A stretch of DNA of 64,000 bases from Bacteroidales bacterium (lineage in GTDB: Bacteria > Bacteroidota > Bacteroidia > Bacteroidales > UBA3663). Shown piece by piece: positions 10,525 to 55,726 of this stretch (positions within the stretch are counted from its first letter, which is position 1; each line of letters opens with the position of its first letter). The notes under the pieces were generated by a model that was not told where the DNA came from, did not search any database, and saw nothing but the letters and a program-made list of their open reading frames with translations. The position numbers and the translations under genes were made by a program. The stretch covers positions 5,042 to 69,041 of the forward strand of contig JAZLJN010000059.1 of assembly GCA_045617885.1 (NCBI GenBank), given 5' to 3'.

Positions 10525-10554
10525 AATTTTCTTTTTGTGGGTTATTTCGTTGTT

Positions 10555-10694
10555 TCGATTTTTCGAAGACTCGAATTTTCGAGCATTCGAAGTATCGATT
10601 TATCGAGTCATCGAGATTTCGAGCCATCGAGATTTCGAACCATCGAGTCTTCGACTTTTCGAGATTTCGATTTTTCGAGTAATCGTTCTATCGG
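10555..10694. repeat. 8-bp phased TCGA array (16 perfect units plus degenerate flanking units) in the susD-to-SGBP junction of PUL-1
   Basis: TCGA occurs at 10555, 10563, 10571 and so on to 10675 with no phase slip. TCGT lies at 10547 and 10683, and TCGG at 10691. Confidence 0.95.
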
Positions 10695-12380: not shown

Positions 12381-12480
12381 TCGAATTAAAAAATACGATT
12401 GATCGAAAAATCGATTGATCGAGAAATCGAATAATCGAATGAATTGAAGGATCGAATGAATTGAAAAATCGGTTTTTCGA
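12381..12480. repeat. TCGA-core array with an 8-bp (occasionally 9-bp) period in the susC-to-susD junction of PUL-1
   Basis: TCGA or one-off variants occur at 12381, 12395 (ACGA), 12403, 12411, 12419, 12427, 12435, 12444 (TTGA), 12452, 12461 (TTGA), 12469 (TCGG) and 12477. Confidence 0.85.
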
Positions 12481-18611: not shown

Positions 18612-18752
18612 ACTGCTTATTTTGATTCCTGAAAAATAATATTTGTTGCACCGGATAGAAAAAATGTTGTAAATTCTGTTTCCTCTTCATCCTAATATAT
18701 AGAGTTGCTCATTTGATAAAACTTTATTTTTCAATAGTTTGCAAAAAAGTTC

Positions 18753-18792
18753 GTTCCCACCGCCCATTTGTTATAGGTGGGAACGTTTTTTT
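18753..18792 (+). terminator. Intrinsic terminator after the regulator gene
   Basis: GTTCCCACC (18753-18761) pairs with GGTGGGAAC (18776-18784), followed by GTTTTTTT. Confidence 0.7.
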
Positions 18793-18796
18793 GTTG

Positions 18797-18804
18797 TACC
18801 TTTG
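18797..18804 (+). promoter_or_regulatory. -7 box (TACCTTTG) for the PUL-2 susC operon
   Basis: TACCTTTGCAGCGC lies 79 nt upstream of the ATG at 18883 and directly after the terminator. Confidence 0.5.
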
Positions 18805-18882
18805 CAGCGCTTATTTGGAGACTATATTGACAAAAACAAAGAAAGCAACAAATATTATTTACACAATTTAAAAACACAAGAC

Positions 18883-21800
18883 ATGAAACGATTCCTATTG
18901 ATTGCTGCCATGATGATCTGCACTACGGTGCTGGCACTGGCACAAGTGAAGGTTCATGGCACCGTGATGGACAAGGGGCTCGGTGAGCCAGTCCTTGGTG
19001 CTACGGTCCTCGAGGTAGGCACCACGAACGGTACTGTTACCGACTTCGATGGTAACTTCGAACTGACCGTCAAGGAGGGCGCAACCCTCCAGTTCAGTTA
19101 CATCGGTTACACCACCGTACAGCTTCCTGCTGCAGCTGAGATGAACATCGAACTCAGTGAGGATGCTGAGATGATGGAAGAAGTAGTCGTTACCGGTTAT
19201 ACCACTCAGCGTAAGGCTGACTTGACAGGTTCGGTAGCAGTTATTTCTACCAAAGACATGAAGACCAACTCGAACCCAGACCCAATGAAGTCTCTGCAGG
19301 GTAAGGTTGCTGGTATGACCGTGACCACTAATGGTTCGCCTGCTGGTACTGCTACAATCCGTATTCGTGGTATTGGTTCTATTAACTCTAACCAGGATCC
19401 TCTCTACGTTATTGACGGTGTACCTACTACCTCTGGTTTGAATACACTTAATGCTGCTGACATTGAGTCAATGCAGGTATTGAAGGATGCCGCTTCGGCT
19501 TCTATCTATGGTAGCCGTGCTGCCAACGGTGTCATCATCATCACCACAAAGAGTGGTAAGAAGGGTGACGGCAAGGTAAAGGTTGACTTCAACGCTTCAA
19601 TGACTGCCAACTTCTACAACAGCCAGTCGAAGATGAAGCTGATGGATTCACACGAATATGCTACCGCTATGGCTCAGGCTGCTCTGAATGATGGCATGGA
19701 CCCAGTGACTTATGCTCTCAACTACGGACTCAACCTCAATGCCAGCAATGGTTTCGGCATTCAGGCTTACGACATTGCAAGCGGTGAGTACAAGAACTAT
19801 ACCGTGGCTGGTGCTTATGGCAATGGCGAATTCATCAACAACAGCCAGAAGATGCGTCTCAGCAATACCGACTGGCTCGATGAGATCAGCCGCGTAGGTG
19901 TGACCCAGAACTATGACCTCTCACTCAGCAATGGTTCGGAGAAGGGCTCGCAGATGCTCAGCCTCGGTTACAAGAAGGCTGAAGGTGTCCTGAAGTACAC
20001 CGACTTTGAGAACATCTCTATCCGTCTGAACTCTACATATAATATTAATAAGGTAGTGAACGTGGGTGAGAACTTCACCCTTACCTATAGCGACCAGGTT
20101 GATTGCGCTCCTCTTGAGAATGCACTCAAGATGCCTGCTATCATCCCTGTCTATGAGATTGATGGTACTACCTTTGGTGGTCCTGTAGGTTCTATGCGCG
20201 ACCGTCAGAACCCAATGCGCGAACTTGCCTACAACAAGGACAACCGATTGAAGATGTGGCGTATCTTCGGTAACGGCTACATCAACATCAAGCCTTTCAA
20301 GGGCCTTGACCTCCGTTCGAACTTCGGTATTGACTACAATGCCAACTTCATCCACCACATGACCTACACCTTCATCTCTGATAACGTTTCAGAGAAGACT
20401 CCAAAGACCAGTGTAGATCAGACCAACGACCTGAAATGGACCTGGTCAAATACCGCTAACTACCTCGTACCACTTCCAGAAAACCATACACTCACCGCAC
20501 TGGCTGGTTTCGAGCTTTTCAAGCAGGACTTCGTCAACATCAACGGTTCGGCAGAAGGCTTCGCCATTGAGAACGAACTCTACATGTGGCCAAATGCTGC
20601 TACAGGTTCTATGCGCCTCAATGGTGCTAACGTAGGTTACTCGCTCGTGTCATTCTTCGGCAAACTTGACTACAACTGGCAGGATCTGCTCCTCGCATCG
20701 TTCACCATCCGTCGTGACGGTTCAAGCCGCTTCGGTAAAAACAACCGCTATGGTACCTTCCCAGCTGCTTCACTTGGTTACCGTGTATCAAAGCACATGG
20801 ACTATGATTGGCTCACCGACTTGAAGCTCCGCGCATCTTGGGGTCAGACCGGTAACCAGGCTATTGATAACTCTGCCCGCTATACCATCTTCATCGCTGA
20901 CTATGGTACAAGTCGTCAGGATGGTACTGCATACGACTTCAAGGGTGAGGGCGGCGGCCAGTTCAACAGCGGTTATCGCGTACAGAGCACCGGTAATGAC
21001 AACCTCAAGTGGGAGACTGCCGAGCAGTGGAATGCCGGTCTTGACTTCGCATTCTTCAATAATACACTCTTCGGCACCTTCGATGCCTATATCAAGGACG
21101 TAAAGGATATGCTTATCAATCCAGCTTACCTTGGTTCAGTAGGTGAGGGTGGTGCTTCATGGCTCAACGGTCCATCTCTCCGTAACTGGGGTATGGAGCT
21201 CACCGTAGGTTATCGTGGAAAGACTTCGTTCGGCATGGGCTATAGCGTAAACGGCAATGTTGACTTCTTCCGTAACCGTGTAACCTGGTTACCAGAGACT
21301 ACTACCGGTTCTTACGCTCACACTACCAAGCAGAACCTCGTAGAGGCTAAGGTTCCTTACGGTTCAAGCGTAGGTTATGTTGCTGACGGTCTCTTCACCA
21401 GCCGAGAGGAGGTACTTGCTTCTGGTCAGGAGAACGCTCGTCTGGGCGGTATCAAGTATGCTGACCTTGACGGCAACGGCATCATCAACAGCGAGGACCA
21501 GACCTGGATCTTCAACCCAGTACCAGATTTCTCTTACGGTCTCACCGTCAACCTTGATTACAAGGGCTTCGACTTCCAGATGTTCTGGCAGGGTGTAGCT
21601 GGCGTAGATGTATATAATGGTCAGAAGTTCCAGACCGACTTCTATGGTCTGGTGGACGTGAACTCAAGCAAGGGTAGCCGTTTGCTCAATGGCTGGCTCC
21701 CAGGCGTAAACGAGAAGAGCTCTATCCCAATGCTCTCTACCATGAACAACTCTGACGAAGGCCGTGCTTCAACCTATTTCGTAGAGAATGGTTCATACCT

Positions 21801-22005
21801 CAAACTCCGTACGCTCCAGGTGGGCTACACCGTTCCTGAGTCTCTGCTTCAGAAGGCACACATCGCCAATGCCCGCTTCTACCTGAGCGGCAATAACCTC
21901 GCTACCATCAAGAGCAGCAGCCTGACCTGCACTGATCCTGAAAACCCAGGCTTTGCTTATCCTATCTCTACTTCAGTAAGCTTCGGCCTCCAGATCGGCT
22001 TCTAA
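18883..22005 (+). CDS. SusC/RagA family TonB-dependent transporter (fructan PUL-2), a paralogue of 12488-15502
   Basis: Start MKRFLLIAAMMICTTVLALAQ. The ORF-track 5' extension spans the promoter and terminator. The N-terminal ~120 aa are close to the PUL-1 SusC (GATVLEVGTTNGTVTDFDGNFELTV). Plug and barrel motifs are present. Confidence 0.95.
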   Translation: MKRFLLIAAMMICTTVLALAQVKVHGTVMDKGLGEPVLGATVLEVGTTNGTVTDFDGNFELTVKEGATLQFSYIGYTTVQLPAAAEMNIELSEDAEMMEEVVVTGYTTQRKADLTGSVAVISTKDMKTNSNPDPMKSLQGKVAGMTVTTNGSPAGTATIRIRGIGSINSNQDPLYVIDGVPTTSGLNTLNAADIESMQVLKDAASASIYGSRAANGVIIITTKSGKKGDGKVKVDFNASMTANFYNSQSKMKLMDSHEYATAMAQAALNDGMDPVTYALNYGLNLNASNGFGIQAYDIASGEYKNYTVAGAYGNGEFINNSQKMRLSNTDWLDEISRVGVTQNYDLSLSNGSEKGSQMLSLGYKKAEGVLKYTDFENISIRLNSTYNINKVVNVGENFTLTYSDQVDCAPLENALKMPAIIPVYEIDGTTFGGPVGSMRDRQNPMRELAYNKDNRLKMWRIFGNGYINIKPFKGLDLRSNFGIDYNANFIHHMTYTFISDNVSEKTPKTSVDQTNDLKWTWSNTANYLVPLPENHTLTALAGFELFKQDFVNINGSAEGFAIENELYMWPNAATGSMRLNGANVGYSLVSFFGKLDYNWQDLLLASFTIRRDGSSRFGKNNRYGTFPAASLGYRVSKHMDYDWLTDLKLRASWGQTGNQAIDNSARYTIFIADYGTSRQDGTAYDFKGEGGGQFNSGYRVQSTGNDNLKWETAEQWNAGLDFAFFNNTLFGTFDAYIKDVKDMLINPAYLGSVGEGGASWLNGPSLRNWGMELTVGYRGKTSFGMGYSVNGNVDFFRNRVTWLPETTTGSYAHTTKQNLVEAKVPYGSSVGYVADGLFTSREEVLASGQENARLGGIKYADLDGNGIINSEDQTWIFNPVPDFSYGLTVNLDYKGFDFQMFWQGVAGVDVYNGQKFQTDFYGLVDVNSSKGSRLLNGWLPGVNEKSSIPMLSTMNNSDEGRASTYFVENGSYLKLRTLQVGYTVPESLLQKAHIANARFYLSGNNLATIKSSSLTCTDPENPGFAYPISTSVSFGLQIGF

Positions 22006-22008
22006 TTC

Positions 22009-22096
22009 TCGAAGTAAATATATTAACTCGAAAAACTCGAAATATCGAAAATTCGAAATCTTGTTGATTCGAAATATCGACAATTCGATAACTCGT
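22009..22096. repeat. 8-bp phased TCGA array in the susC-to-susD junction of PUL-2
   Basis: TCGA occurs at 22009, 22028, 22037, 22045, 22053, 22069, 22077 and 22085, with TCGT at 22093. From 22037 onwards the 8-bp phase is exact, with 22061 a degenerate TTGT unit. The array starts 4 nt after the susC stop codon. Confidence 0.9.
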
Positions 22097-22113
22097 AAAT
22101 AGAAATTATCATT

Positions 22114-23895
22114 ATGAAACAATATATTTTTGGAGCCCTCGCACTTGCTGCCTCAATGAGCATGACCAGCTGCGACGATTTCCTTGAGGTAAAGCCTTCA
22201 GGTATCGTTGATGAGGAGCTCGCATTCAGTGAGCCAGATGCTATGGTGACTGCCGCTTATGCAGCCCTCGGCGCTGACTGGTACACCTATCCATTCAATC
22301 TCTGGCCTTACGGCTCACTTGCTAGTGACGATGCCCTCAAGGGCGGTGGTGATACTGGCGATACTGAGTATCACGCCGTAGAGATCTGGAGTTCTCTCTC
22401 TTCTACCAATCCTGGTGGCCACATGGATGAGCTCTGGTATCATCTCTATGTATCTATCTCTCGTTGCAACCGTGCCATCATGGCTGTCCGTGATCAGGGC
22501 GAAGAGAAGCTTGGTGCAGAGACTGCTGCTATCCGTATGGGCGAAGCTCGTTTCCTCCGCGGTCACTTCTACTACAAGCTGATTCAGCTCTTCAACCAGG
22601 TTCCTTACATTGATGAGATTTGCCTGCAGAACGCTGCCCAGGAGCAGACCCGCAACGATGAGTTCACACATGATCAGCTTATGGAGAAGGTTATCGCTGA
22701 CTTCGAGGCTGCATACAATGCTCTGCCAGCCCGTCAGAACGATAAGGCTCGTGTCAACAAGGCTGCAGCAGCCGCTATGCTTGCCAAGTGCTACCTCAAC
22801 AAGGCTTACGGCAATGGCTATGAGGCAAGCACCGGTTATGCTCATGTAAATTCTGCTGACATGCAGAAGGTAGTGGAATATACAGACTATGTAATCTCTA
22901 CCGGCAACTACCGCTACGAGCAGGACTTCGGAGATCTCTTCATGCTCGACAACAAGAATGGCTGCGAGTCAATCTTCGCTGTTCAGCACTCAAACTATGA
23001 GGATGACAACACCAAGTTAGGCCGTTCAAACTGGAGCAACATGCTCAACGGCTGTCACGGCATGTGGTCAAAGGGCTGGGACTTCCACAAGCCATCACAG
23101 AACCTTGTCAACGCATTCAAGGTTGACGAGAATGGTCTGCCAATGTTTGATGACTATGAGAAGGTTCACAATATCTATCCTATCAATGGCGTAGAGCAGG
23201 ATCAGAAGTGGGATCCACGTCTGTTCCATACCGTAGGTATTCCTACTTTCCCTTACAAGTATGAGACCGGTGCTTCTGAAGATGGTATCGTCAAGAGCCT
23301 CATCATGACTGCCACTGCCGACAATGCTCGCTGCCCATCTTCATACGGCTACTATGCTTCTCTGAAGGAGGTTCCTCAGCGTTCAAAGGGCGAGAGCTAC
23401 ACCGAGGGTACCTGGCAGGGCTTTGCCATGAACGACTACGTAGTTCGCTACACAGAGATGATGCTCTGGCGTGCTGAGGCACTCATTGAGCTTGGCAAGG
23501 TAGGCGATGGCATCGAGATCATCAACGCCATCCGTCAGCGTGCCAACAACTCTGTAGCCAAGTACATCGGCTATGCTTCTAACCAGATCCGTACCCTGGG
23601 TATGTACTCAACAGGTGCAAGCAAGGATGAGGCTCGTAAGTATCTCCGCTGGGAGAAGCGCCTCGAGATGGCTATGGAGTCAGAGCGTTTCTTCGACCTC
23701 CGTCGCTGGGGTCTCGCTTCTGAGACCATGAATGCTTACTTCCAGGCAGAGCAGAACTCTAACTATGAGGGCATGGATTACGCTGGTTACCTCGCTTCGG
23801 CTCACTTCCAGGCAGGCAAGAACGAGTTCTGGCCAATCCCTTACCAGCAGCTCTTCTACGTGCCAGGATTGTACGTGCAGAATGCAGGATATTAA
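22114..23895 (+). CDS. SusD/RagB family lipoprotein (fructan PUL-2)
   Basis: MKQYIFGALALAASMSMTSCDD is nearly identical to the PUL-1 SusD signal. SusD-like body. C-terminal FWPIPYQQLFYVPGLYVQNAGY. Confidence 0.9.
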   Translation: MKQYIFGALALAASMSMTSCDDFLEVKPSGIVDEELAFSEPDAMVTAAYAALGADWYTYPFNLWPYGSLASDDALKGGGDTGDTEYHAVEIWSSLSSTNPGGHMDELWYHLYVSISRCNRAIMAVRDQGEEKLGAETAAIRMGEARFLRGHFYYKLIQLFNQVPYIDEICLQNAAQEQTRNDEFTHDQLMEKVIADFEAAYNALPARQNDKARVNKAAAAAMLAKCYLNKAYGNGYEASTGYAHVNSADMQKVVEYTDYVISTGNYRYEQDFGDLFMLDNKNGCESIFAVQHSNYEDDNTKLGRSNWSNMLNGCHGMWSKGWDFHKPSQNLVNAFKVDENGLPMFDDYEKVHNIYPINGVEQDQKWDPRLFHTVGIPTFPYKYETGASEDGIVKSLIMTATADNARCPSSYGYYASLKEVPQRSKGESYTEGTWQGFAMNDYVVRYTEMMLWRAEALIELGKVGDGIEIINAIRQRANNSVAKYIGYASNQIRTLGMYSTGASKDEARKYLRWEKRLEMAMESERFFDLRRWGLASETMNAYFQAEQNSNYEGMDYAGYLASAHFQAGKNEFWPIPYQQLFYVPGLYVQNAGY

Positions 23896-23934
23896 AAAAG
23901 TTAAAAAGTTAAAGAGTTAAAAAGTTAAAGAGTT
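23895..23934. repeat. 8-bp tandem repeat AAARAGTT x5 starting at the susD stop codon
   Basis: The units are aaaaagtt, aaaaagtt, aaagagtt, aaaaagtt and aaagagtt in exact phase. Confidence 0.9.
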
Positions 23935-23959
23935 CCCTGCTGCGAAATAAGGAACTCTT
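23928..23959 (+). other. Stem-loop overlapping the last repeat unit (intra-operon hairpin)
   Basis: aagagttcc (23928-23936) pairs with ggaactctt (23951-23959), with a 14-nt loop. Confidence 0.5.
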
Positions 23960-23993
23960 AACTTACACTTAACTCATTATAAAATTAAGAAAA

Positions 23994-25502
23994 ATGAAAA
24001 TCCAATATATTTTTGCAGCATTGGCAGCAGCTTCAATCATGAGTGCCTGCAATGCTGACATGGACATCGACATTGCTGCTCCTGTTCTTACCGCTCCTGA
24101 TGAGAGCACTATCCAGGGCAGTCTCCAGGGTGATGACTATGTTCTCACTTGGAGTGGTAATGGCTCAAAGATGCAGGTGACCCGTTATGCCAATGGTAAT
24201 AAGGCCGGTTCAGAGATCGTTGAGGGTAATAGCTATACTCATCGCGATGTAGAGACTAACGTTCCTTATATGTATATCCTCAAGCTCACTGATGGATTAA
24301 ACTTCTCAAAGGGTGTCATCAAGGAGTTCCTTCGCCAAGGTGCAAGCAAGTGCTCAGGCCTCTCTATGTCTCAGCTTGAGAAGGCTGGTGGCTATGATGC
24401 ACAAGTCACTTGGAATGCCAATCCTTCTGCAGCAGCAGTAAAGCTGATTGCAAACAATGGCGGCGCTCGTGAGATCAAGGAGACTCTGTCTGCAAGTGTG
24501 ACCTCTTACATCATTCCTGATGTTAAGGAGGGCGAGACCTGGAATGTAACCCTCATTGCCGAGAACGAAAAGGGCACCTCTCTGCCAGCAGCTACCTCTC
24601 TCCGTATCGGCAAACTCGCTGTAGCTTACCTCAGCCTCTATGATACTCCTGAGGAGCTCCTCGCTAATGGCGATGATGATGAGGCATACGGCTGGGTTTG
24701 GTTCCATGCCAACTATCCTACCGGCACCTTCGTTCCATTCAGCAGCATTACCTCTGCTGATGTGCTTGAGCCATATCGTGTTGCCTTCTTCATGCGCGAC
24801 ATTGATGATCCTGGCACCGTAGGCTATGATGCCTGGAACTATCCTGAGGTTGTCAATAATGCTACTCCATTCGTAGCAGAGTGGTACAAGAATGGCGGTA
24901 GCCTTCTCCTCTGGAGCCACGCTACCACTTACGTTGGTCATCTGGGCCGTCTTGACCTTGATATGATGAAGAAGAATGACCATGCTATCGGCTACGGCTG
25001 CGGCAATAACCCAGATACCTGGAAGATGGCTGTTCAGCTTGCACCTGCAGGCGGTCGCTTCATCAAGGATCATTCTACCCACCCAATCTTCCGTGGCCTT
25101 GACGTTGAGCCAGCAGGCAACACCAAACTCATCGCTGTGAAGAGCGGTTCGGCATTCACTGAGGATCACAACTGTCTCTTCTTCAACCTGCCTTCTGTCC
25201 TCACCGGCATTGGCAATCAGGAGGAGACCTGCTATCAGGCTGCTACCAAGACCTACGGCCTCTATCCTCTCGGCACCTGGGACAGCCAGATCGATTGGGT
25301 AAGCCAGCTCAACGTATGGGAGGCTCAGCAGGGCAATACTGAGTTCCAGGGAACCATCATCTGCGTAGGCAACGGTGGATGTAACTTCTACCTGCGTACC
25401 CAGGAGGACTTCGACGTACAGACCCAGCCTTCAGGCAATGCATTCCAGGCCAATATTGAAACTATGGCAAAGAATGCCATTGAGTACCTTAAGACTCGCT
25501 AA
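23994..25502 (+). CDS. Surface lipoprotein, putative SGBP of PUL-2, with a single copy of the domain that is duplicated in 8521-10524
   Basis: Lipoprotein signal MKIQYIFAALAAASIMSAC and FN3/Ig-like N-terminal modules (YVLTWSGNGSKMQVTRY). The C-terminal domain is homologous by eye to the PUL-1 SGBP: GGSLLLWSHATTYVGHLGR, THPIFRGL, EDHNCLFFN, NAFQANIETMAKNAIEYLK. Confidence 0.7.
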   Translation: MKIQYIFAALAAASIMSACNADMDIDIAAPVLTAPDESTIQGSLQGDDYVLTWSGNGSKMQVTRYANGNKAGSEIVEGNSYTHRDVETNVPYMYILKLTDGLNFSKGVIKEFLRQGASKCSGLSMSQLEKAGGYDAQVTWNANPSAAAVKLIANNGGAREIKETLSASVTSYIIPDVKEGETWNVTLIAENEKGTSLPAATSLRIGKLAVAYLSLYDTPEELLANGDDDEAYGWVWFHANYPTGTFVPFSSITSADVLEPYRVAFFMRDIDDPGTVGYDAWNYPEVVNNATPFVAEWYKNGGSLLLWSHATTYVGHLGRLDLDMMKKNDHAIGYGCGNNPDTWKMAVQLAPAGGRFIKDHSTHPIFRGLDVEPAGNTKLIAVKSGSAFTEDHNCLFFNLPSVLTGIGNQEETCYQAATKTYGLYPLGTWDSQIDWVSQLNVWEAQQGNTEFQGTIICVGNGGCNFYLRTQEDFDVQTQPSGNAFQANIETMAKNAIEYLKTR

Positions 25503-25520
25503 AGCATAGGTTTCGTTCTC

Positions 25521-25596
25521 CATCAAAGGGAATCAAACGTAAATCAATCTATTATACAACTGAATACTTTGATTTATTTTGATTTCCTTTGGTGGA
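25521..25596. repeat. Long two-tier imperfect hairpin built from AAATCAA/GAATCAAA words
   Basis: ccatcaaagggaatcaaa (25521-25538) pairs with tttgatttcctttggtgg (25579-25596). An inner pair is taaatcaa with tttgattta. It is related to the element at 44598-44668. Confidence 0.6.
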
Positions 25597-25615
25597 GTTT
25601 ATTTTTATTTTTGTC

Positions 25616-27175
25616 ATGAAAAAGTCTCTTCTCCTTCTCTCTTTGGCGCTTCTGGTGCTTGCTTCGTGTGGTGGAGGCAGTGATGATCCGATCATCAATC
25701 CGAATCCCAATCCCGTCAATCCGAATCCAGACAACGGCGGCAATGATAATCCCGGTGGCAACACAGGAAACACTACGCAGTCGGCATATAATGAGCTTTA
25801 CCGTCCACAGATTCACTATACACCTGCCAGGAACTGGGTCAATGATCCGAACGGCATGGTCTATGTGGACGGCACCTGGCATCTCTTCTACCAGTACAAT
25901 CCTTATGGCAATGACTGGGGAAATATGAGCTGGGGACATGCTACGAGTACTGACCTCATCCACTGGAAAGAACAGAATGTGGCACTGATGCGTGATGATC
26001 TGGGAGACATCTTCTCCGGTTCATGCGTCGTGGATCACAACAATACAGCAGGATTTGGCGCCGGCGCCGTCGTGGCTTTCTATACCAGTGCTGGTGAACG
26101 TCAGCAGCAGAGTATGGCATATAGTACTGACGGCTGCAAGTCATTCACCAAATACAGCGGCAACCCCATCATCCCGAACACCTCACTTCCTGACTTCCGT
26201 GACCCGAAAGTCTTCTGGCATGAAGCTACGCAGCAATGGGTAATGACGCTGGCTTTAGGCTGGGACTGCGGCATAGATATCTGGACAAGCCGCGACCTGC
26301 ACAGCTGGAAGAAGGAATCCACCTTCCGCACCGAGGTGAACCGCTGTCATAACTGTCAGTGGGAGTGTCCCGACCTCATCGAACTGCCTTATGAAGGCGG
26401 CACGAAATGGGTGCTTATCGTCAATGTCAATCCTGGCGGTCCTACCAACGGTTCGGGCATCATGTGCTTTGTAGGTGACTTTGATGGCAAGGAGTTCAAG
26501 GCTGATGATCTCAACTATCCGATGTGGATGGATACTGGTATGGACAATTATGCCGGTGTTACCTGGAGCAATGCCCCTGCTGACCGCAAGATTCTCATCG
26601 GCTGGATGAACAACTGGGCTTACTGCGGTGGTGTGCCCTGTTCGCCTTGGCGTTCGGCTTTCACCCTGCCTCGTGAACTGTCTCTGGTCAATGTAGATGG
26701 CAAGCCATTCATTGCCAGCAAGGTTGTAAGTGAGATTGACAAGATTGCAGGCAGCTGGCAGGAGAGCAGCAATTCCACACTCCTTATTCCAAATTCCTCT
26801 CTCTCTGCCTATCATGCTCAGGTTACCATCCCTACTACCGAAATGGTAACATTTACGCTTAGCAATGAGAAGGGCGAAAAGCTTGAGCTCACCACCAACA
26901 CCATCTACCACACCCTTTCGGCAAAACGCACCTCTGCCACAGGTGAGTCGCCTGCCTCTTTCTCTTACCCTTCGGTTAGCGGCAAGCTCATGGGCAATGA
27001 CGCGACCATCACGCTCGATATCTACGTAGATCAGTCATCCGTAGAGATCCTCTCTGCTGACGGCACCTTCGTGATGACCAACCTGGTGTTCCCTTCCTCT
27101 ATCTACAACCAGATCACCGTTCCTGCTTCAGCCACAGGACTTAAGTACAGGACACTTAACAGTATTTGGAACTAA
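25616..27175 (+). CDS. GH32 beta-fructosidase/fructanase lipoprotein with a Pro/Asn/Gly-rich tether
   Basis: Start MKKSLLLLSLALLVLASCGG. Linker PIINPNPNPVNPNPDNGGNDNPGGNTGN. Canonical GH32 blocks are WVNDPNG, WHLFYQYNPYG, WGHATS, FSGS, FRDPKVFW and WECPDL. Confidence 0.95.
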   Translation: MKKSLLLLSLALLVLASCGGGSDDPIINPNPNPVNPNPDNGGNDNPGGNTGNTTQSAYNELYRPQIHYTPARNWVNDPNGMVYVDGTWHLFYQYNPYGNDWGNMSWGHATSTDLIHWKEQNVALMRDDLGDIFSGSCVVDHNNTAGFGAGAVVAFYTSAGERQQQSMAYSTDGCKSFTKYSGNPIIPNTSLPDFRDPKVFWHEATQQWVMTLALGWDCGIDIWTSRDLHSWKKESTFRTEVNRCHNCQWECPDLIELPYEGGTKWVLIVNVNPGGPTNGSGIMCFVGDFDGKEFKADDLNYPMWMDTGMDNYAGVTWSNAPADRKILIGWMNNWAYCGGVPCSPWRSAFTLPRELSLVNVDGKPFIASKVVSEIDKIAGSWQESSNSTLLIPNSSLSAYHAQVTIPTTEMVTFTLSNEKGEKLELTTNTIYHTLSAKRTSATGESPASFSYPSVSGKLMGNDATITLDIYVDQSSVEILSADGTFVMTNLVFPSSIYNQITVPASATGLKYRTLNSIWN

Positions 27176-27251
27176 AAAGAATACGTCCTGGCAGGACTTA
27201 TCTCACTACATACGGAGTAGTGCCAAAAGTTGACATCAACTCCGAAACATC

Positions 27252-27314
27252 AAATATCAAGCATCACCACCCCTCTACAATGGTCTGTAGCGCAGGTGGT
27301 GATACTTGATATTT
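27252..27314. terminator. Long inverted repeat between the convergent GH32 and trkH genes (bidirectional terminator candidate)
   Basis: aaatatcaagcatcaccac (27252-27270) pairs with ggtggtgatacttgatattt (27295-27314), with a 24-nt loop. Confidence 0.6.
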
Positions 27315-27346
27315 GTTATTTGATATTTAGCTATGGCTTTTTATCA

Positions 27347-28867
27347 TCACTTCTGCCGCCAAAACACGCGAGTGAAAAGCACAATGACTGTGAATATCTC
27401 CAGACGGCCAATGAGCATTGTGGCGCTGAGCACCCATTTGCTCAATGCCGGGAGCTCTGCCCAGGTAAAGGCAGGACCCGTGGAACCCAGACCAGGGCCA
27501 CAGTTGCCGATGGCGGAGATGGTGGTGCCTAAAGCGGTATCCATATCGATGCCCTGCAGCATCATGATGACAATACACGCAAAGGCTACGAGGAAGAACA
27601 GCAGCACGAAGGCAAGGGTGCGCTGAAGGTACTCCAGTCGCAAGGGACGGTTGTCAAACATTACGGATTTATACACCCCCGGGATTACGGACTGCCGCAG
27701 GATTATCTTCATGTTCTTGATCATAATGACCAAGCGCAATATCTTGAATCCGCCTGCCGTTGAACCAGCACATCCACCACATGCCATGATGAAGAGCGTC
27801 GGGATCCAGAAGATCCTGCCCCACAGCTGATAGTCATAATACTCTGCCTGAAATCCGCAGGTGGAGATGATCGTGACGACATGAAACAGCGAGGTTCGCA
27901 GCGTGTCGGCAAACCCATGTGGCATAGCCTCCAGCTTGTCGGGTGTCAAGCCGCCACGCCACAACCGGAAATAATGCAGCAGGATGAAGGTGACCGTAAA
28001 TCCGATGACGATATAGACAAACCAGCGGAATTCTTCGCTCTCCCAGAACTGTCGCACCCGTCCCCGCTTCAGCAGATAGAACAATGTGAAGTTGATGCTG
28101 GCAATAAACAGGAAGAACGTACATACATACTCAATATAAGCCGAATGGAACCAGCCGATGCTTGCCTGATGCGTTGAGAAACCGCCTGTGGCAAGGGTTG
28201 TCATAGCATGACATACGCCATCAAACAATGACATGCCACCTGCCAGATAGCATAGGCAGCATACGGCGGTCAATCCGATATAAATGAACCACAGGTAACG
28301 GGAGGTGTCCTGTATTCTGGGGCGGAGCTTGTCTATCGTCATGCCGGTCACTTCGGCGCTGAACATCTGCACTTGTGCGGACTGTATCTTGGGCAAAAGA
28401 GCCAGTGAGAACACCACAATGCCCAGACCGCCTATCCACTGCGTCAGGCTTCGCCACAACAGGATTCCATGCGGCTGGGAATCAATATCCGTCAGTACGG
28501 TGCATCCTGTGGTGGTAAATCCGGACATCGTCTCAAGGAAGGCATCGCATAGCTGCGTGCATGTACCATTAAGCAGATAAGGGATCATGCCTATGAGAGA
28601 AAATACAATCCACATCACCGAGACAATCAGATAGCCCTCACGCTGAGTGACGCGCTCCATTCCCATCTGCTTACCGCGGGTCAGACTCCAGCCCAGCAGG
28701 GCACAACCCACCATCGGGATGGCGAGTGCTACAGCATCTTGCTCTCCCTCGCGCCACCAGTAGTAGCAAGCTACCAGGGTGGCAACAGCCATGAAGAACG
28801 ATTCCAGTAGCAGCAGCTTGCCACATGTATGCCGTATCAGCTGCCAGTTCAGTGAGTTTTTTTTCAT
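27347..28867 (-). CDS. trkH: TrkH family potassium uptake membrane protein
   Basis: A 506-aa polytopic membrane protein with TrkH/KtrB-type repeated M1-P-M2 segments (TTTGCTV, TLATGGFSTH, ISTCGFQ, AIGNCGPGLG). Confidence 0.85.
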   Translation of the reverse strand: MKKNSLNWQLIRHTCGKLLLLESFFMAVATLVACYYWWREGEQDAVALAIPMVGCALLGWSLTRGKQMGMERVTQREGYLIVSVMWIVFSLIGMIPYLLNGTCTQLCDAFLETMSGFTTTGCTVLTDIDSQPHGILLWRSLTQWIGGLGIVVFSLALLPKIQSAQVQMFSAEVTGMTIDKLRPRIQDTSRYLWFIYIGLTAVCCLCYLAGGMSLFDGVCHAMTTLATGGFSTHQASIGWFHSAYIEYVCTFFLFIASINFTLFYLLKRGRVRQFWESEEFRWFVYIVIGFTVTFILLHYFRLWRGGLTPDKLEAMPHGFADTLRTSLFHVVTIISTCGFQAEYYDYQLWGRIFWIPTLFIMACGGCAGSTAGGFKILRLVIMIKNMKIILRQSVIPGVYKSVMFDNRPLRLEYLQRTLAFVLLFFLVAFACIVIMMLQGIDMDTALGTTISAIGNCGPGLGSTGPAFTWAELPALSKWVLSATMLIGRLEIFTVIVLFTRVFWRQK

Positions 28868-29055
28868 CCAGTCTTTTTTACTATTGTCTTAAGTAACACG
28901 GAGCGAAGATAGACCTTTTCCCGTAATTCTGCAATTTTATTGTCGAAAAAAACATTAATCCACGCCTTTGCCCCCCTTTCCCATACCATTCTGGCAAATC
29001 CAGACACTACTTATCCCATTTATTCATTTGAGAAGTATCAAAACGACGCCAACGC

Positions 29056-29260
29056 TTCATGGCATGGATTTCACAACTTTTAAATGGGCGCCACACACCC
29101 TTGGCAGCCATTTATGAACTGTGAAATGGGCGCCAGCACCCTTGGCCGCCATTTATGAACCGTGAAATGGACGCCAGCACTCTTGGCTGCCATTTATGAA
29201 CTGTGAAATGAGCCCCAGCACTTCTTGGCACGGATTTGCAGATGTGGAAATAGATGCCTT
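29056..29260. repeat. Tandem array (about 5 units, 41-42 bp period) of hairpin units AAATGGGCGCCAgcacccTTGGCCGCCATTTatgaactgtg
   Basis: Unit starts (AAATG) are at 29082, 29124, 29165, 29206 and 29248. Each unit has an imperfect inverted repeat. It shares the word ATTTCACAACTnnnAAATGGrCGCCA with the repeat at 5828-6010. Confidence 0.85.
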
Positions 29261-29418
29261 CACTGTTAGTATGTATTTAAAGAAGCTCTGTGAAGGTTGT
29301 CTTCCTTGATGGCGGTGATGGAGAGCTGGATTAACCCCTTTCAGACCAATAAAATGAATAATCACCCCGAAAATAGCAGATTTATGGATTTGGATTTGGA
29401 TAAATCAGAAAAATGGAT

Positions 29419-29426
29419 TATTTTTG
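29419..29426 (+). promoter_or_regulatory. -7 box (TATTTTTG) for the HprK-like/S24/PqqD cassette
   Basis: TATTTTTGCGCG lies 52 nt upstream of the ATG at 29478. Confidence 0.45.
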
Positions 29427-29477
29427 CGCGTTTAAGATTCAGTTTGAACCATCAAGACATAATTCGGTACCGAACTC

Positions 29478-30383
29478 ATGACAGAATATCTTTACCTCAT
29501 AGCCGACTGGCAGGTACGGCTGAGATTTGCAAGTGACGATGATGTCACGGGCATGCATCTGCTGCCTTCTTTTGCCCCATTCAGCCTCCCGGCTGCAGAG
29601 GCGGATGAGGGAAACCAGCTCTTCATGATGACTATTGACCAACAGCTGCAGACAGACGCCGCTGAAGAACTTGAGCCAGTGAAGGTTTGTGATACGGGCA
29701 ATGGTGAGATTGCTGTGGCTCGACGCAAGAGGGGTGGATACCAGTTTGAGATACATGACCTGAAGGGCAATCTCTGCGCCCTGATGCTGGCAGATGCCGG
29801 CTTTACCAACTGCTACTGCCGCGTGATGGGAAGTTCGGCTACCAGTAACAGCTTCGGCCTCAACAACGCACTGATGATGGCATTCGCCTTTGCTGGAGCC
29901 ACACGTGAGACGCTCATGATACACGCCTCCCTGGTGCGACATAACGGGATAGGCTATGCTTTTGTGGCAAAAAGCGGCACCGGAAAAAGTACGCAGACCG
30001 CCAATTGGCTGAAGATGATTCCGGACTGCGACCTCATGAATGATGACAATCCGGTGGTACGCGTCACGGAGGATGACTGCCAGATATACGGAAGTCCGTG
30101 GAGCGGCAAGACGCCCTGCTACCGTCAGGTAAAAGCCCGACTGGGTGCCGTGACCCGTATAGTTCGGGATTCGGATAATCACGTGGTACGCACCGCTCCA
30201 CTGGCAGGATTCAGCGACCTGCTCTCCTCCTGCTCAGTGATGCCTTGGGACAAAGAGACCTACAGCGGCATTTGTGACTCTGTAACTGCCGTAATAGAAA
30301 AAACACCAACCTATCATCTGCATTGCACGGCAGAACCTGCCAGCGCCCTTGTTTGTTATGAAGCAATTGGATCTGTTAGCTGA
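29478..30383 (+). CDS. HPr kinase/phosphorylase C-terminal-domain-like P-loop protein (HprK-related kinase), function unknown
   Basis: HASLVRHNGIGYAFVAKSGTGKSTQTANWL matches the H-x-S/G...G-x-G-x-(L/F)-x-G-x-SG-x-GKS pattern of the HprK catalytic domain. GSPWSGK lies downstream. There is no signal peptide. Confidence 0.6.
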   Translation: MTEYLYLIADWQVRLRFASDDDVTGMHLLPSFAPFSLPAAEADEGNQLFMMTIDQQLQTDAAEELEPVKVCDTGNGEIAVARRKRGGYQFEIHDLKGNLCALMLADAGFTNCYCRVMGSSATSNSFGLNNALMMAFAFAGATRETLMIHASLVRHNGIGYAFVAKSGTGKSTQTANWLKMIPDCDLMNDDNPVVRVTEDDCQIYGSPWSGKTPCYRQVKARLGAVTRIVRDSDNHVVRTAPLAGFSDLLSSCSVMPWDKETYSGICDSVTAVIEKTPTYHLHCTAEPASALVCYEAIGSVS

Positions 30384-30822
30384 CTATCTGCGTCAGAATC
30401 ATGAGCAAACCGTGAGCCTGCAGGTGATCGGCAACAGCATGCGTCCCTATCTGGTGCATGAGCGCGACTCTGTACTGCTGCGCTACGCCGAAAAGGTGCA
30501 GGTGGGCGATGTGGTGCTGGCAGAGGTCAATCCGTCGCACTACGTACTGCACCGTGTAGTCAAACTGACCGAATCGGGTGAGATGACTATGCGTGGCGAC
30601 GGCAACCGCAGCACGGAGCAATGCCGAAGAGAGGATGTGCGAGGTGTGGTAGTAGGATTCATCCGTGGGAAAAACAAGAAGACTTCAACCACAGCGGACC
30701 TCGGCTATAGGATCTACGCCTGGTTCTGGATGCATACGCTGCCTCTGCGTGGTGTGATGCTCCGGCTGCATAATATTTGTTTCGGGTCATGCAAGGACCT
30801 CAGCAAGTACAGGAAAAATTGA
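30349..30822 (+). CDS. S24/S26 family serine peptidase (LexA/signal-peptidase fold, Ser-Lys dyad)
   Basis: VIGNSMRPYL (nucleophile Ser), VGDVVLAEV, LHRVVKL (general-base Lys) and MRGDGN. It overlaps the upstream gene by 35 nt (26 nt if the start is 30358). Confidence 0.7.
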   Translation: MFVMKQLDLLADYLRQNHEQTVSLQVIGNSMRPYLVHERDSVLLRYAEKVQVGDVVLAEVNPSHYVLHRVVKLTESGEMTMRGDGNRSTEQCRREDVRGVVVGFIRGKNKKTSTTADLGYRIYAWFWMHTLPLRGVMLRLHNICFGSCKDLSKYRKN

Positions 30823-30846
30823 TAATTGATAATTGATAATTGGATC
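30819..30846. repeat. 7-bp tandem repeat TTGATAA x3-4 beginning in the S24 peptidase stop codon
   Basis: The units are ttgataa, ttgataa, ttgataa and ttggatc. The same 7-mer occurs at 55675-55716. Confidence 0.85.
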
Positions 30847-30926
30847 TAAGTGTCGAACAGACAGCTATGGGTACGATATCAAATTTTGAACAGTCACTTA
30901 ACTTGTTATAAATATCATACAATACA

Positions 30927-31193
30927 ATGAAAAGAAACAGTAATATCGTGATGCGCACCGTGTGCGACGTACCCTTCCTGATAGCAGAGGGTGAGAGCAG
31001 TGTAGAGATGAACCGCCTGATAAGCCTGAATGAGACAGCAGCTTTCCTCTGGGAAGCAATGGGCGAAGGTGAATTCACAACGGAAGAACTTGTGACCCGG
31101 CTCACTGCCGAGTACGATGTATCTGCCGAGGAGGCGCAGCAGGCTGTGTCAGCGCTCATTGAAGACCTCAAGAAAGAGGGTGCCGTGGAATAA
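30927..31193 (+). CDS. PqqD family protein (RiPP recognition element-like peptide chaperone)
   Basis: An 88-aa protein with the pattern of small PqqD-like proteins: LNETAAFLWEAMGEGEFTTEELVTRLTAEYDVSAEEAQQAVSALIEDLKKEG. Confidence 0.7.
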   Translation: MKRNSNIVMRTVCDVPFLIAEGESSVEMNRLISLNETAAFLWEAMGEGEFTTEELVTRLTAEYDVSAEEAQQAVSALIEDLKKEGAVE

Positions 31194-31218
31194 TGAATAT
31201 AATTAGGAGATACCAACA

Positions 31219-32730
31219 ATGAAACAAATGAACAGAAACAACCTTAAGCTCATGAGTACCAGAAAGTGGACTCTCACGCTCTTATTTATGCTTTGTGCCC
31301 TGATGGTCAAGGCACAGTACAAGCAGGTGAATGACATCTCTTACGCAACGTCGGACAATCCTTATGCACAGGAGCGATGCAAGCTCGATGTGTACTACCC
31401 TACCGAGATAGAGGATGCTCCAGTAGTAGTATGGTTCCATGGCGGAGGCATCGAAGGCGGCAACAAGCACATTGACAATGAACTGAAGAACAGCGGTCTT
31501 GTAGTAGTGGCAGCCAACTACCGTCTGCTACCAAAGGCTACGATTGACGAGTGTCTGGACGATGCCGCAGCTGCCGTAGCATGGACCTTCAAGAACATTG
31601 AGAAATACAATGGCAGCAAGCGCAAGATCTTTGTGGCAGGCCATTCGGCTGGCGGCTATCTGCTGGACATGATCGGTCTGGAGAAAAAGTGGCTGGCAAA
31701 GTATGACATCGATGCCGACTCGATTGCAGCCCTGATTCCATTCAGCGGACAGTGCATCACACACTATAACGTACGTAAGCCTCAAGGCATCGGCCCACTG
31801 CAGGCAACCATCGACCAGTATGCTCCGCTCACCTTCATCCGCCCGGACGCTCCTCCGATGATTATCATTTCAGGTGACCGCGAACTGGAACTGTATGGTC
31901 GCTATGAGGAGCAGGCTTACTTCTGGCGTATGCTTAAGCTGGTGGGGCACAAAGATGTGACCCTCTACGAGATGCAGGGCTATGATCACGGACAGATGCC
32001 TCATCCTGCCTATCATATCCTGAAAGATCACATCCGCCGCCTGACCGCCAAGGCTGTCTCGGCGCTCCCTGCTCCGGTGATTAAGGTTGAACAGCAGGCG
32101 CAGTACAATTTCAGCTGGCAGAAGGCTTTTGCCAGACGTGGCGCTAAGGTGGAGAATCAGCAGGGAACAATGCCTGTGCTTAATCTGGGAGCCAACAACG
32201 GCTACTATGACCTCACTGCGGAGACCGGCGCTTTGATTAAGGGTCTGCGTGACTTTACCATCTCGGTCTATTTCAAGGTAGGATCAGAGAATAAGCTGGA
32301 TGGATACGGACACTTCCTCTTCGCCTTCTCAAAACTGGCAGAGAACAAAGCCGACGAAGGACCATACATGGCAATGCGACTCAACGAGCAGCGCTTTGAG
32401 ACTTCGACTGGCGGATGGGAACATGAAGAGATCGTAATGCAGGGCGGACAGCCAAAGCGTGACGTCTGGGTTCATGCCCTCTACCGTCAGCAGGGCAAGA
32501 CTGGAGAACTCTATCTGGACGGCAAGCTGATAGGCCGCAACAACAATATGCCTATCCTGTCAGAAATCTTTGACGAAGCTCCTGCCAACTGCTGGATCGG
32601 CCGCGCCCCATTCAATGGAGACAAATATCTCACTGACACCCAGGTGGCAGACTTCCGCATCTATAACTATGCTGTAAGCAACAAGGAACTGCAGCAGCTG
32701 AAGGCAGGCAAGGCTAACCTGCCAAAGTAA
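31219..32730 (+). CDS. Secreted alpha/beta-hydrolase (esterase/lipase type) fused to a C-terminal LamG/concanavalin-like domain
   Basis: Signal peptide ...LCALMVKAQ. Oxyanion VWFHGGG. Nucleophile elbow GHSAGG. Catalytic His candidate GYDHG. C-terminal LamG-like region: FTISVYFKV, GHFLFAFS, LYLDGKLIG, DFRIYNYAVS. Confidence 0.75.
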   Translation: MKQMNRNNLKLMSTRKWTLTLLFMLCALMVKAQYKQVNDISYATSDNPYAQERCKLDVYYPTEIEDAPVVVWFHGGGIEGGNKHIDNELKNSGLVVVAANYRLLPKATIDECLDDAAAAVAWTFKNIEKYNGSKRKIFVAGHSAGGYLLDMIGLEKKWLAKYDIDADSIAALIPFSGQCITHYNVRKPQGIGPLQATIDQYAPLTFIRPDAPPMIIISGDRELELYGRYEEQAYFWRMLKLVGHKDVTLYEMQGYDHGQMPHPAYHILKDHIRRLTAKAVSALPAPVIKVEQQAQYNFSWQKAFARRGAKVENQQGTMPVLNLGANNGYYDLTAETGALIKGLRDFTISVYFKVGSENKLDGYGHFLFAFSKLAENKADEGPYMAMRLNEQRFETSTGGWEHEEIVMQGGQPKRDVWVHALYRQQGKTGELYLDGKLIGRNNNMPILSEIFDEAPANCWIGRAPFNGDKYLTDTQVADFRIYNYAVSNKELQQLKAGKANLPK

Positions 32731-32757
32731 TTTGACCAGATGACAGAAAAAAGAAAC

Positions 32758-32786
32758 AGGTTCGGGGATATCACATCTCCGAACCT
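32758..32786. terminator. Bidirectional terminator hairpin between the esterase and fructokinase genes
   Basis: aggttcgg (32758-32765) pairs with ccgaacct (32779-32786), with A/T runs on both sides. Confidence 0.65.
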
Positions 32787-32843
32787 GCGCCTAAAAATAA
32801 ATACACGCTTGAGTCAAAACTCAATATTATTAACACAATGAAC

Positions 32844-33719
32844 CTAAGCCTTTAGAATCTCCTCAGGGAATACTGGCATTGCGCCATTCTGAGTGCAGAC
32901 GAAGGCCGATGCCTGAACTGCAATCTTATGTGACTCCTGAATGCTCTTGCCCTTCAAAATCTGTGCTACGAAAGTAGCGGTAAATGAGTCACCAGCACCT
33001 ACGGTATCAGCAACCTTTACCTTTGGAGTCTCAACGTATGAGGTCTCATCAGCAGTGAATACATAGCTACCTACAGCACCATAGGTCAAGATAACCATAC
33101 GGAGCGAGTCATAGCGCTTGATCAGCTCGCGGCAAACGTCAGCTGGCTCACCAGTAATCTGAAGCAATGCCTTAACTACTTCAATCTCCTCCTCGTTGAG
33201 CTTGAGGATAGTAGCACGACGAAGGCTCTCCTCAATAACCTCTACGCTGTAGAAGTGCTGACGGAGGTTGATGTCATAGATACGCTCAGTATCGGCATCC
33301 ATCGTACCAAGGAAACGCAAGATAGTGTTGCGCGACTCAGCTGAACGCTGTGCCAGTGAACCGAAGCAGACAGCCTTGGTGCGCTTAGCAAGTGCCTCAA
33401 GCTCTTCACTCCAAGGGATATTGTCCCAAGCCACGTTCTCACAGATCTCATAAGAAGGAATACCGTCACCTGACAGAGTAACCTGAACGGTACCTGTTGG
33501 GAATGGAACACGTACGATGCGGTGGTCAAGATTTACACCCTCGATACGCTCCAGAATCTCATCACCCAAAGCATCCTGTCCGATAGCACTTACCACTATG
33601 GTGTGCCAGCCAAACTGACCTACATGATATGCAAAGTTTGCTGGTGCACCACCTAACTTACGTCCCTCTGGGAGGCAATCCCAAAGTGCCTCGCCCATAC
33701 CTACGATAATATCTTTCAT
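32844..33719 (-). CDS. PfkB family carbohydrate kinase, probable fructokinase (BT1757-like position)
   Basis: GEALWDCLPEGRKLGGAPANFAYH and the C-terminal DTVGAGDSFTA motif. It is the last gene of a GH32, MFS, kinase operon. Confidence 0.85.
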   Translation of the reverse strand: MKDIIVGMGEALWDCLPEGRKLGGAPANFAYHVGQFGWHTIVVSAIGQDALGDEILERIEGVNLDHRIVRVPFPTGTVQVTLSGDGIPSYEICENVAWDNIPWSEELEALAKRTKAVCFGSLAQRSAESRNTILRFLGTMDADTERIYDINLRQHFYSVEVIEESLRRATILKLNEEEIEVVKALLQITGEPADVCRELIKRYDSLRMVILTYGAVGSYVFTADETSYVETPKVKVADTVGAGDSFTATFVAQILKGKSIQESHKIAVQASAFVCTQNGAMPVFPEEILKA

Positions 33720-55716: not shown

Positions 55717-55726
55717 GAATAAAAAT

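Follow-up and report, generated by a model that had tools for sequence, protein, structure and literature searches.

The stretch of DNA analyzed here, referred to below as the window, comprises 64,000 nucleotides of contig JAZLJN010000059.1 from a Bacteroidales bacterium (assembly GCA_045617885.1, positions 5,042 to 69,041 of the forward strand). It carries four co-oriented open reading frames, ORF1 to ORF4 (Table 1), which a preliminary description had treated as one cassette composed of an HPr-kinase-like P-loop protein, an S24/S26 peptidase, a PqqD-like chaperone and a secreted esterase with a LamG domain. The four frames, the overlap of 26-35 nt between the first two and the TAnnTTTG box in front of them are all present in the sequence. 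ORF1-ORF3 are best explained as a reduced copy of a conserved, uncharacterized Bacteroidales module for peptide or protein maturation. ORF4, in turn, is best explained as an unrelated secreted carbohydrate esterase, suited to the polysaccharide-utilization neighborhood, which sits by chance in the slot of an exporter gene.

Table 1. Genes and features of the locus and its flanks, in window coordinates
Feature	Position	Strand	Description
ORF1	29478..30383	+	301 aa; P-loop protein, PEPCK/HPr-kinase superfamily (judged from the model); cytoplasmic
ORF2	30358..30822 (ATG, 154 aa) or from TTG 30349 (157 aa)	+	Soluble clan-SF serine peptidase (predicted)
ORF3	30927..31193	+	88 aa; PqqD-family domain (RiPP recognition element type, by sequence)
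ORF4	31219..32730	+	503 aa; secreted alpha/beta-hydrolase esterase + Laminin_G_3
TATTTTTG	29419..29426	+	TAnnTTTG match (Bacteroidota -7 promoter consensus), candidate promoter; 52 nt upstream of ORF1 start
Fructan utilization locus (SusC/SusD/DUF4960/GH32)	18739-27175		Upstream of ORF1
TrkH gene	Between fructan locus and ORF1	Opposite	
PfkB kinase, MFS transporter, GH32	Downstream of ORF4	Opposite	

Conservation and architectures of the gene trio

When one genome per species was scanned, at least 595 confirmed matching stretches were obtained, the best 80 of which were examined. Nearly all of these 80 loci belong to Prevotellaceae (Prevotella, Segatella, Hoylesella, Hallella, Palleniella), with a few from other Bacteroidales. 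The synteny counts given below refer to 87 sources with ORF1, the window included, that is, to 86 other ORF1 loci. ORF1 is followed by ORF2 in 86 of the 87 sources, and an ORF3 ortholog, nearly always directly after ORF2, is found in 82. The trio is near-ubiquitous among the Prevotellaceae genomes recovered and is present in hundreds of species-level genomes, a point that the preliminary description had overlooked, as it had the derivation of the trio from the five-gene module described below.

The same genes also occur as natural fusions. ORF1 is joined to ORF2 in a protein of 491 aa (P0114) that stands for 779 member sequences, and ORF2 is joined to ORF3 in a protein of 240 aa with a PqqD domain (P0152); fusions of ORF2 with an NTP_transf_5 (PF14907) nucleotidyltransferase domain also exist. 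The surroundings (about 6 kb) of the 86 other ORF1 loci contained no ORF4 homolog, nor did L087 and L088, two of the window's nearest relatives. Because of this synteny and of the fusions, we regard ORF1-ORF3 as the functional unit, with ORF4 outside it. The proposed four-gene cassette therefore holds for its first three genes, which a check of adjacency showed to be strongly syntenic, whereas ORF4 accompanies them in the window only.

Two architectures of the trio can be distinguished. In type A, which is that of most Prevotellaceae, a gene that we call U lies directly upstream of the trio (82 of 87 sources), often with an RpoD-like sigma-70 gene farther upstream (61 of 87), while the genes downstream of ORF3 vary and are mostly on the other strand. 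In the U protein, which is about 150 aa in length, a near-invariant (Y/F)xFGxxxSFNDS(T/I)VYFT motif comes after a Sec-type signal peptide. The protein matches nothing in Pfam, NCBIfam or PADLOC; examples are found at positions 7487-7975 of L001, 7575-8000 of L006, and at about 80 other loci. Gaps of -1 to -4 nt between U and ORF1 are frequent and point to translational coupling; U is kept where the sigma-factor gene is absent.

In type B, to which the window's nearest relatives belong (L004, L005, L008, L087 and L088), there is no U, and an ATP-binding cassette (ABC) exporter gene of the ABC_membrane+ABC_tran type directly follows ORF3. ORF2 is extended by an NTP_transf_5 domain at three of these loci, L004 and L005 being without it. 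A search with hidden Markov models found no U homolog in the window or in the exporter-type loci. In neighbor-joining trees of ORF1 and of ORF3, the window and the type B sequences, of which four are distinct because L005 is a copy of L004, form an exclusive clade, of which the window is the sole member without an ABC exporter, ORF4 occupying the exporter slot. The nucleotidyltransferase and the exporter are both lost from the window, and no relics of either gene were found within its 64 kb.

A more complete arrangement is an operon of five genes, which encode, in this order, a ScmC-like protein, an S24-like peptidase, a PqqD protein, a stand-alone NTP_transf_5 protein and an ABC exporter. Three mutually unrelated contexts, Bacteroides sp. 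224 among them, contain this operon, which has gaps of at most 13 nt and ORF1 identities of 33-44%. The ORF1 proteins of these operons fall outside the group formed by the two types, and the five-gene state therefore looks ancestral. As far as the sequences tell, the simplest reading is that type A, type B and the window are progressively reduced forms of a five-gene ancestor.

A close relative of the NTP_transf_5 protein is also encoded away from the module, at positions 7001-8131 of L090, inside a polysaccharide-synthesis locus with glycosyltransferase and aminotransferase genes. This placement hints that the family handles the transfer of sugars or sugar phosphates more generally.

Predicted activities of ORF1, ORF2 and ORF3

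ORF1 had been described as a protein with the HPr-kinase signature. The quoted motif (HASLV...SGTGKST) is present, as is that quoted for ORF2 (GNSM...HRVVK). A profile of the ORF1 family found nothing among the PDB chains at E<=10, and a comparison of folds was therefore necessary. The AlphaFold2 model (predicted local distance difference test, pLDDT, 89; predicted template modeling score, pTM, 0.88) matches ATP-dependent PEPCK over its full length in Foldseek (E 3e-7 to 1e-5, TMq 0.45-0.55) and the catalytic domains of HPrK/P over its C-terminal half (E 4e-6 to 5e-4), the N-terminal domain aligning better with PEPCK than with HPrK. Judged from this model, ORF1 belongs to the PEPCK/HPr-kinase P-loop superfamily. 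Twelve diverse relatives share invariant H149-A-S, S166-G-T-G-K-S-T-Q and N188-D189-D190-N191 residues, and the P-loop is kept also in the five-gene outgroups. ORF1 thus has the P-loop fold, the Walker-A GxGKS/T motif and the Asp-Asp metal site of HPrK/P and ATP-PEPCK, but its identity to them is only about 10-13%, Hpr_kinase_C is not matched, and there is no context of HPr or the phosphotransferase system.

The curated NCBIfam models give ORF1 scores of 20.2 bits for ScmC (TIGR04249, cut-off 125), 19.5 bits for HprK_rel_A (TIGR04352, cut-off 200) and 13.7 bits for HprK-related kinase B (TIGR04355, cut-off 200). The precomputed PF27840 (ScmC) match is flagged 'weak' on close relatives and is unmarked on the five-gene relatives. 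Since the fold matches while the profile scores are weak or absent, the label 'HprK-like' is correct at the level of the superfamily only. We predict ORF1 to be a distant relative of the ScmC family (PF27840) and an ATP-dependent phosphotransferase. Its own family is large, with 8,341 clusters at 50% identity (E<=1e-3).

ORF2 overlaps ORF1 by 26 nt if translated from ATG 30358 and by 35 nt from TTG 30349. An overlap of 25 nt is repeated at many orthologous loci, which favors the ATG start. The protein scores 27.1 bits against Pfam Peptidase_S24 (cut-off 23.3), and its best curated match is the archaeal/ER-type signal peptidase I, TIGR02228 (35.1 bits, below the cut-off of 51.85); the Ni-SOD protease model TIGR02754 gives 20 bits, also below its cut-off. 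A profile search of the PDB returned LexA matches that were marginal only, so that here too the folds had to be compared. The AlphaFold2 model of ORF2 (pLDDT 89.5) has the C-terminal domain of LexA as its top Foldseek match (E 2e-4, root-mean-square deviation 2.2 Å over 92 columns), with further matches to UmuD', lambda cI, human SEC11, SpsB and SipA. Ahead of the catalytic core, at the N-terminus, there is only a single short helix, and two helices lie at the C-terminus; there is no DNA-binding domain. Modeled as a polar helix, the N-terminus (MKQLDLLADYLRQNHEQ) contains neither a hydrophobic segment nor a membrane anchor.

The residues of ORF2 that are invariant in sets of 24 and 41 sequences are G25-x-S27-M28, the first of these motifs being at least 95% conserved in 79 orthologs, H65-R66 and G80-D81-G82-N83. 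Lys69, the Lys of the HRVVK motif, is outside the invariant and near-invariant columns, and the position of the general-base Lys of LexA, judged by its spacing from the Ser, is occupied in ORF2 by the invariant His65-Arg66. The S26B peptidases (Sec11, SipW) are characterized by the pattern Ser...His-Arg...Gly-Asp-x-Asn; from these motifs we take S27, H65-R66 and G80-D81-G82-N83 of ORF2 to be the corresponding catalytic residues. The earlier assignment as a Ser-Lys S24/S26 peptidase is thus right with respect to the fold and Ser27 but not with respect to the Lys: because Lys69 varies and His65-Arg66 does not, ORF2 is better described as a soluble Ser/His peptidase of clan SF, which we predict to be a leader-type endopeptidase. 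With the S26B signal peptidases (Sec11/SPC18, SipW) and the Ni-SOD protease it shares the clan-SF beta-core, the residue pattern, the fold match to SEC11 and, as a prediction, the removal of an N-terminal extension. It differs from them in scoring below the cut-offs, in having no N-terminal transmembrane anchor and cytoplasmic operon partners, and in that its top structural matches are S24 domains of the LexA type.

ORF3 matches Pfam PqqD (PF05402) with 64.3 bits against a cut-off of 23.4, covering 60 of the 67 profile positions. In agreement with the preliminary description, it is by its sequence a clear PqqD domain of the peptide-binding type, i.e., the type of the recognition elements (RRE) of peptides that the ribosome synthesizes and that are post-translationally modified (RiPPs). 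The nearest NCBIfam models are two for PqqD chaperones of the lasso B1 type (34 and 32 bits, both below cut-off). PqqD_rel_X (TIGR04353) and ScmD (TIGR04248) give 22.6 bits (cut-off 35) and 27 bits (cut-off 100), respectively.

Relation to known systems and proposed function

The module can be compared with the maturation and accessory genes (K, B1, B2, N, D) in the clusters of phosphorylated or phosphoglycosylated lasso peptides, namely paeninodin (pade) and pseudomycoidin (psm). In these, the HPrK-family kinase PadeK phosphorylates the C-terminal Ser of the precursor, as does PsmK, the activity of which requires the D158/D159 metal site (PMC6993621). The stand-alone PqqD protein (B1) binds the leader, PsmN, an uncharacterized NTP-transferase that in several cases is fused to B2, is needed to add a hexose to the phosphate, and a D-type ABC exporter follows (PMC8498205, PMC6993621).

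The module resembles these clusters in having an HPrK-superfamily kinase with an Asp-Asp pair that is essential in PsmK (the equivalent pair in ORF1 being D189/D190), a stand-alone PqqD-type protein, the best curated matches of which are the lasso B1 chaperones themselves, a leader protease and, in the relatives, an ABC half-transporter without a peptidase domain. In the five-gene and type B relatives there is also a nucleotidyltransferase, between the other genes or fused to the protease and adjoining the exporter. On the other hand, no Asn-synthase-like cyclase (C) was found in about 95 loci or in the window, and the B2 cysteine protease of the transglutaminase type is absent from the window and from those related loci that have called genes, with the Ser/His clan-SF peptidase in its place. 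There is furthermore no adjacent precursor gene, the window copy is without N and D, and the hosts are Bacteroidales instead of Firmicutes or Proteobacteria. The absence of a lasso cyclase, B2 protease, SPASM radical-SAM enzyme, YcaO protein and obvious precursor near the genes of the window had already been pointed out, and none of these was found in the window here.

The SynChlorMet system (ScmC TIGR04249/PF27840, ScmD TIGR04248, ScmE/F) also combines a ScmC-like P-loop protein with a PqqD-like protein; TIGR04249 is the best curated match of ORF1, and TIGR04248 matches ORF3. The module, however, has a peptidase, a nucleotidyltransferase and an exporter instead of the radical SAM/SPASM enzymes, and no SPASM radical-SAM partner (ScmE/ScmF) was found in the window or the related loci. 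The only radical-SAM gene of the window (37894-38781), of the Radical_SAM_C type, is 5 kb away beside metK. The computationally defined HPr-rel-A system (TIGR04352, TIGR04353, TIGR04355), to which the genes had been likened, shares the pair of a kinase-like and a PqqD protein, with weak matches to its models. This assignment does not stand: ORF1 reaches 19.5 of the required 200 bits and ORF3 22.6 of 35, and the module has no second kinase. With scores far below the cut-offs and partner genes missing, we place the module outside both SynChlorMet and HPr-rel-A.

The search for a substrate near the genes covered 88 loci. The recurrent families of small ORFs at these loci are frame shadows of the sigma gene, U, ORF1, ORF2 and ORF3. 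The gap between ORF2 and ORF3 is 3-90 nt in most relatives, or the two genes overlap. The 14-codon micro-ORF at 30867-30911, previously named as a candidate peptide, does exist, but it is unique to the window and has no counterpart elsewhere, and it was rejected as a precursor. No conserved precursor being found near any locus, the substrate would have to be encoded in trans, or may be U in type A.

By analogy with the lasso systems, we propose that ORF1-ORF3 are a module for leader-guided phosphorylation and cleavage of a peptide encoded elsewhere, a reading that we consider about evenly balanced between right and wrong. The substrate, chemistry and order of steps that we infer are as follows. 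ORF3 would bind the leader region of a ribosomal substrate encoded in trans and present it to ORF1, which would phosphorylate a Ser or Thr, maybe a C-terminal Ser as in the case of PadeK and PsmK. ORF2 would then remove the leader in the cytoplasm. In the complete ancestral form, the NTP_transf_5 protein would decorate the phosphate and the McjD-like ABC half-transporter would export the product. In favor of this proposal stand the observed folds, the intact catalytic motifs, the close synteny of ORF1-ORF3, their fusions, the five-gene relatives and the near-identical copies in other samples that are mentioned below.

Several observations weigh against this proposal. No independent conserved small ORF (>=12 aa) was found within +/-1.5 kb of the 88 loci; the eight exporter-type loci have nothing in common beyond the five core genes, save a surface protein with leucine-rich repeats (LRR) in two; and the five-gene operons are packed (gaps <=13 nt). 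ORF1 matched no family of the local Pfam at E<=1, Hpr_kinase_C included, and scores far under the cut-offs of every curated kinase-like model, and PsmN and the NTP_transf_5 protein of the module are likened to each other by description. The Prevotellaceae form adjoins an RpoD-like sigma gene and is translationally coupled to the secreted protein U, so that it resembles a core function of the cell more than it does a cluster for a natural product. The window copy, being without an exporter, could be on its way to decay. Finally, the literature consulted, including two RRE-mining papers and a survey of Bacteroidales RiPPs, does not describe the module.

The presence of the LRR-type surface proteins, which are related to each other (L004 2744-6307 and L091 7799-9511, both on the minus strand), is probably coincidental. 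In L091, the LRR-type gene is followed by an unannotated ORF of 72 aa (MQQKKTYIPPLVEVIEMEYENS..., 9517-9735, minus strand).

An alternative that we consider unlikely is that the module processes a full-length secreted protein instead of a small dedicated peptide, with the PqqD domain binding a signal-peptide-like N-terminus and with ORF2 and ORF1 modifying the protein before its export. The substrate or partner would be U in Prevotellaceae and a protein encoded elsewhere in the case of the window. The position of U before ORF1 in 82 of the 87 sources, often coupled to it, and its retention in the absence of the sigma gene would be well accounted for, as would the failure to find a small precursor, the similarity of ORF2 to archaeal/ER-type signal peptidase I, its best curated match, and the fold match to SEC11. 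However, the window and the exporter-type loci, which have no U, have retained the trio, and the invariant residues in it are the same. Moreover, the sequences of ORF1-ORF3 contain neither signal peptides nor N-terminal membrane anchors, and cytoplasmic removal of a signal peptide by such unanchored proteins would block Sec export. To our knowledge, PqqD-type domains have so far been found to bind the leaders of dedicated precursor peptides, which also counts against this alternative.

It is improbable that the trio of the window is a functionless remnant of the five-gene system, left when its nucleotidyltransferase and exporter genes were lost. None of the three ORFs is truncated, every family-invariant residue is retained, the ORF1/ORF2 overlap is preserved, and about 10 near-identical full-length copies exist in other samples (the cluster representative being 92% identical), which we count as pointing to selection. 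In addition, Prevotellaceae widely conserve the bare trio as their standard arrangement, and L004 and L005 are likewise without the nucleotidyltransferase domain. What a remnant would explain is that the window, alone in its clade, has no ABC exporter, with no relics of the two genes in 64 kb and an unrelated esterase in the exporter slot.

That the secreted esterase-LamG acts together with the kinase, the peptidase and the PqqD protein, as in the original four-gene cassette, is very hard to credit. As described previously, ORF4 is an alpha/beta-hydrolase with a LamG domain: it matches BD-FAE/Abhydrolase_3 (BD-FAE 79.5 bits) and, at the C-terminus, Laminin_G_3 (49.7 bits), and its sequence shows a GHSAG nucleophile elbow and, at the N-terminus, a hydrophobic segment like that of a signal peptide. 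It starts 25 nt after ORF3, and since there is no promoter box or terminator-like site in between, its co-transcription with ORF1-ORF3 is likely. Nevertheless, no homolog accompanies the 86 other ORF1 loci or those of L087 and L088, ORF4 is secreted whereas ORF1-ORF3 are cytoplasmic, and its domains match the polysaccharide-utilization surroundings. Its LamG domain can be aligned with that of the secreted GH32 fructanase encoded at 6061-8436 on the minus strand (22% identity, E 7e-5). In L087 an esterase gene does lie upstream of ORF1; it bears no relation to ORF4, however, and a linkage to esterases through this locus was rejected.

A role in anti-phage defense or stress regulation, in which a LexA-like self-cleaving peptidase would work with a kinase, is equally hard to accept: the closest structures to ORF2 are the autoproteolytic domains of LexA, UmuD and lambda cI and a sigma factor adjoins the module in Prevotellaceae, but none of 5,027 defense-system models was matched, ORF2 has no DNA-binding domain, its general base is a His as in S26B rather than the Lys of the S24 autoproteases, and the ABC exporter and nucleotidyltransferase of the relatives do not suit a repressor.

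Returning to leader-guided phosphorylation and cleavage, a more specific version can be put forward only tentatively. The product of the module would be of a new ribosomal kind, namely a peptide or small protein that is linear and phosphorylated and, in the case of the five-gene form, phospho-glycosylated or nucleotidylated; its leader would be cut by an RRE-guided cytoplasmic Ser/His enzyme resembling signal peptidases. Prevotellaceae would have the reduced trio as a near-core function, encoded beside an RpoD-like sigma gene, with its substrate, possibly U, encoded in trans. A Ser/His signal-peptidase-like leader peptidase for RiPPs was not described in the literature searched.

The module is an uncharacterized and very widespread variant of RRE-dependent maturation systems, of which the window holds a minimal copy beside an unrelated esterase. 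Prevotella and its relatives are dominant in the gut, oral and rumen microbiota, and a three-gene, peptide-maturation-like module in hundreds of species-level genomes represents a sizeable blind spot. If the tailoring of peptides is its true function, the module would be related to the phosphorylated lasso pathways but have no cyclase, and it would add a Ser/His leader peptidase to the RiPP enzymes; if a secreted protein such as U is modified, it would represent a route of protein processing that is new for Bacteroidota. Experiments could start from the five-gene version, which occurs in cultivable Bacteroides. For annotation, the unit should be corrected to three genes, and the esterase-LamG assigned to the carbohydrate-utilization neighborhood.

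Promoter, surroundings and repeats of the window

The TATTTTTG box is a candidate promoter for ORF1-ORF4, going by its sequence, and is the sole TAnnTTTG on the plus strand within 25613-33018. The motif occurs 36 times in the whole window against 27 +/- 5 expected, which is not significantly above chance, and the box is for this reason best regarded as a match to the consensus and nothing more. No terminator-like sites were found between the start of ORF1 and the end of ORF4, and a scan of the window against Rfam gave no RNA family. The fructan-related surroundings noted before are indeed present on both sides (Table 1), with the TrkH gene as an additional element in between, and the remaining genes of the window belong to polysaccharide-utilization loci or are housekeeping genes. 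The idea of a foreign island was rejected, as the window shows no GC anomaly.

Intergenic tandem arrays with units of 41-42 nt (or 84 nt) lie at 29054-29230, 48612-48802 and 5874-6027 of the window and at 5097-5317 of L087. A short palindrome is part of every unit, for example TGGCAGCCA in the window and TGGTttcgtACCA in L087. The array is about 250 nt upstream of ORF1 in the window and about 120 nt upstream of its homolog in L087. Among about 90 loci analyzed with Tandem Repeats Finder, only these two have such an array upstream of ORF1, and similar arrays occur elsewhere in the window; an element specific to the module was therefore rejected. The arrays may be binding sites or members of a repeat family.

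Short AT-rich tandem repeats (7-8 or 16-17 nt; AATTGAT, TGATAAT, AAAAATCGATTGATCG) fill many spacers between polysaccharide-utilization genes, at 30817-30842, 55675-55722, 10553-10680, 12389-12471, 22032-22088 and 23895-23934 of the window, one of them lying directly after the stop codon of ORF2. A longer tandem repeat with a unit of 420 nt (2.7 copies, 80% matches) occupies 62888-63994, reaching the window end, and probably encodes a repetitive protein domain.

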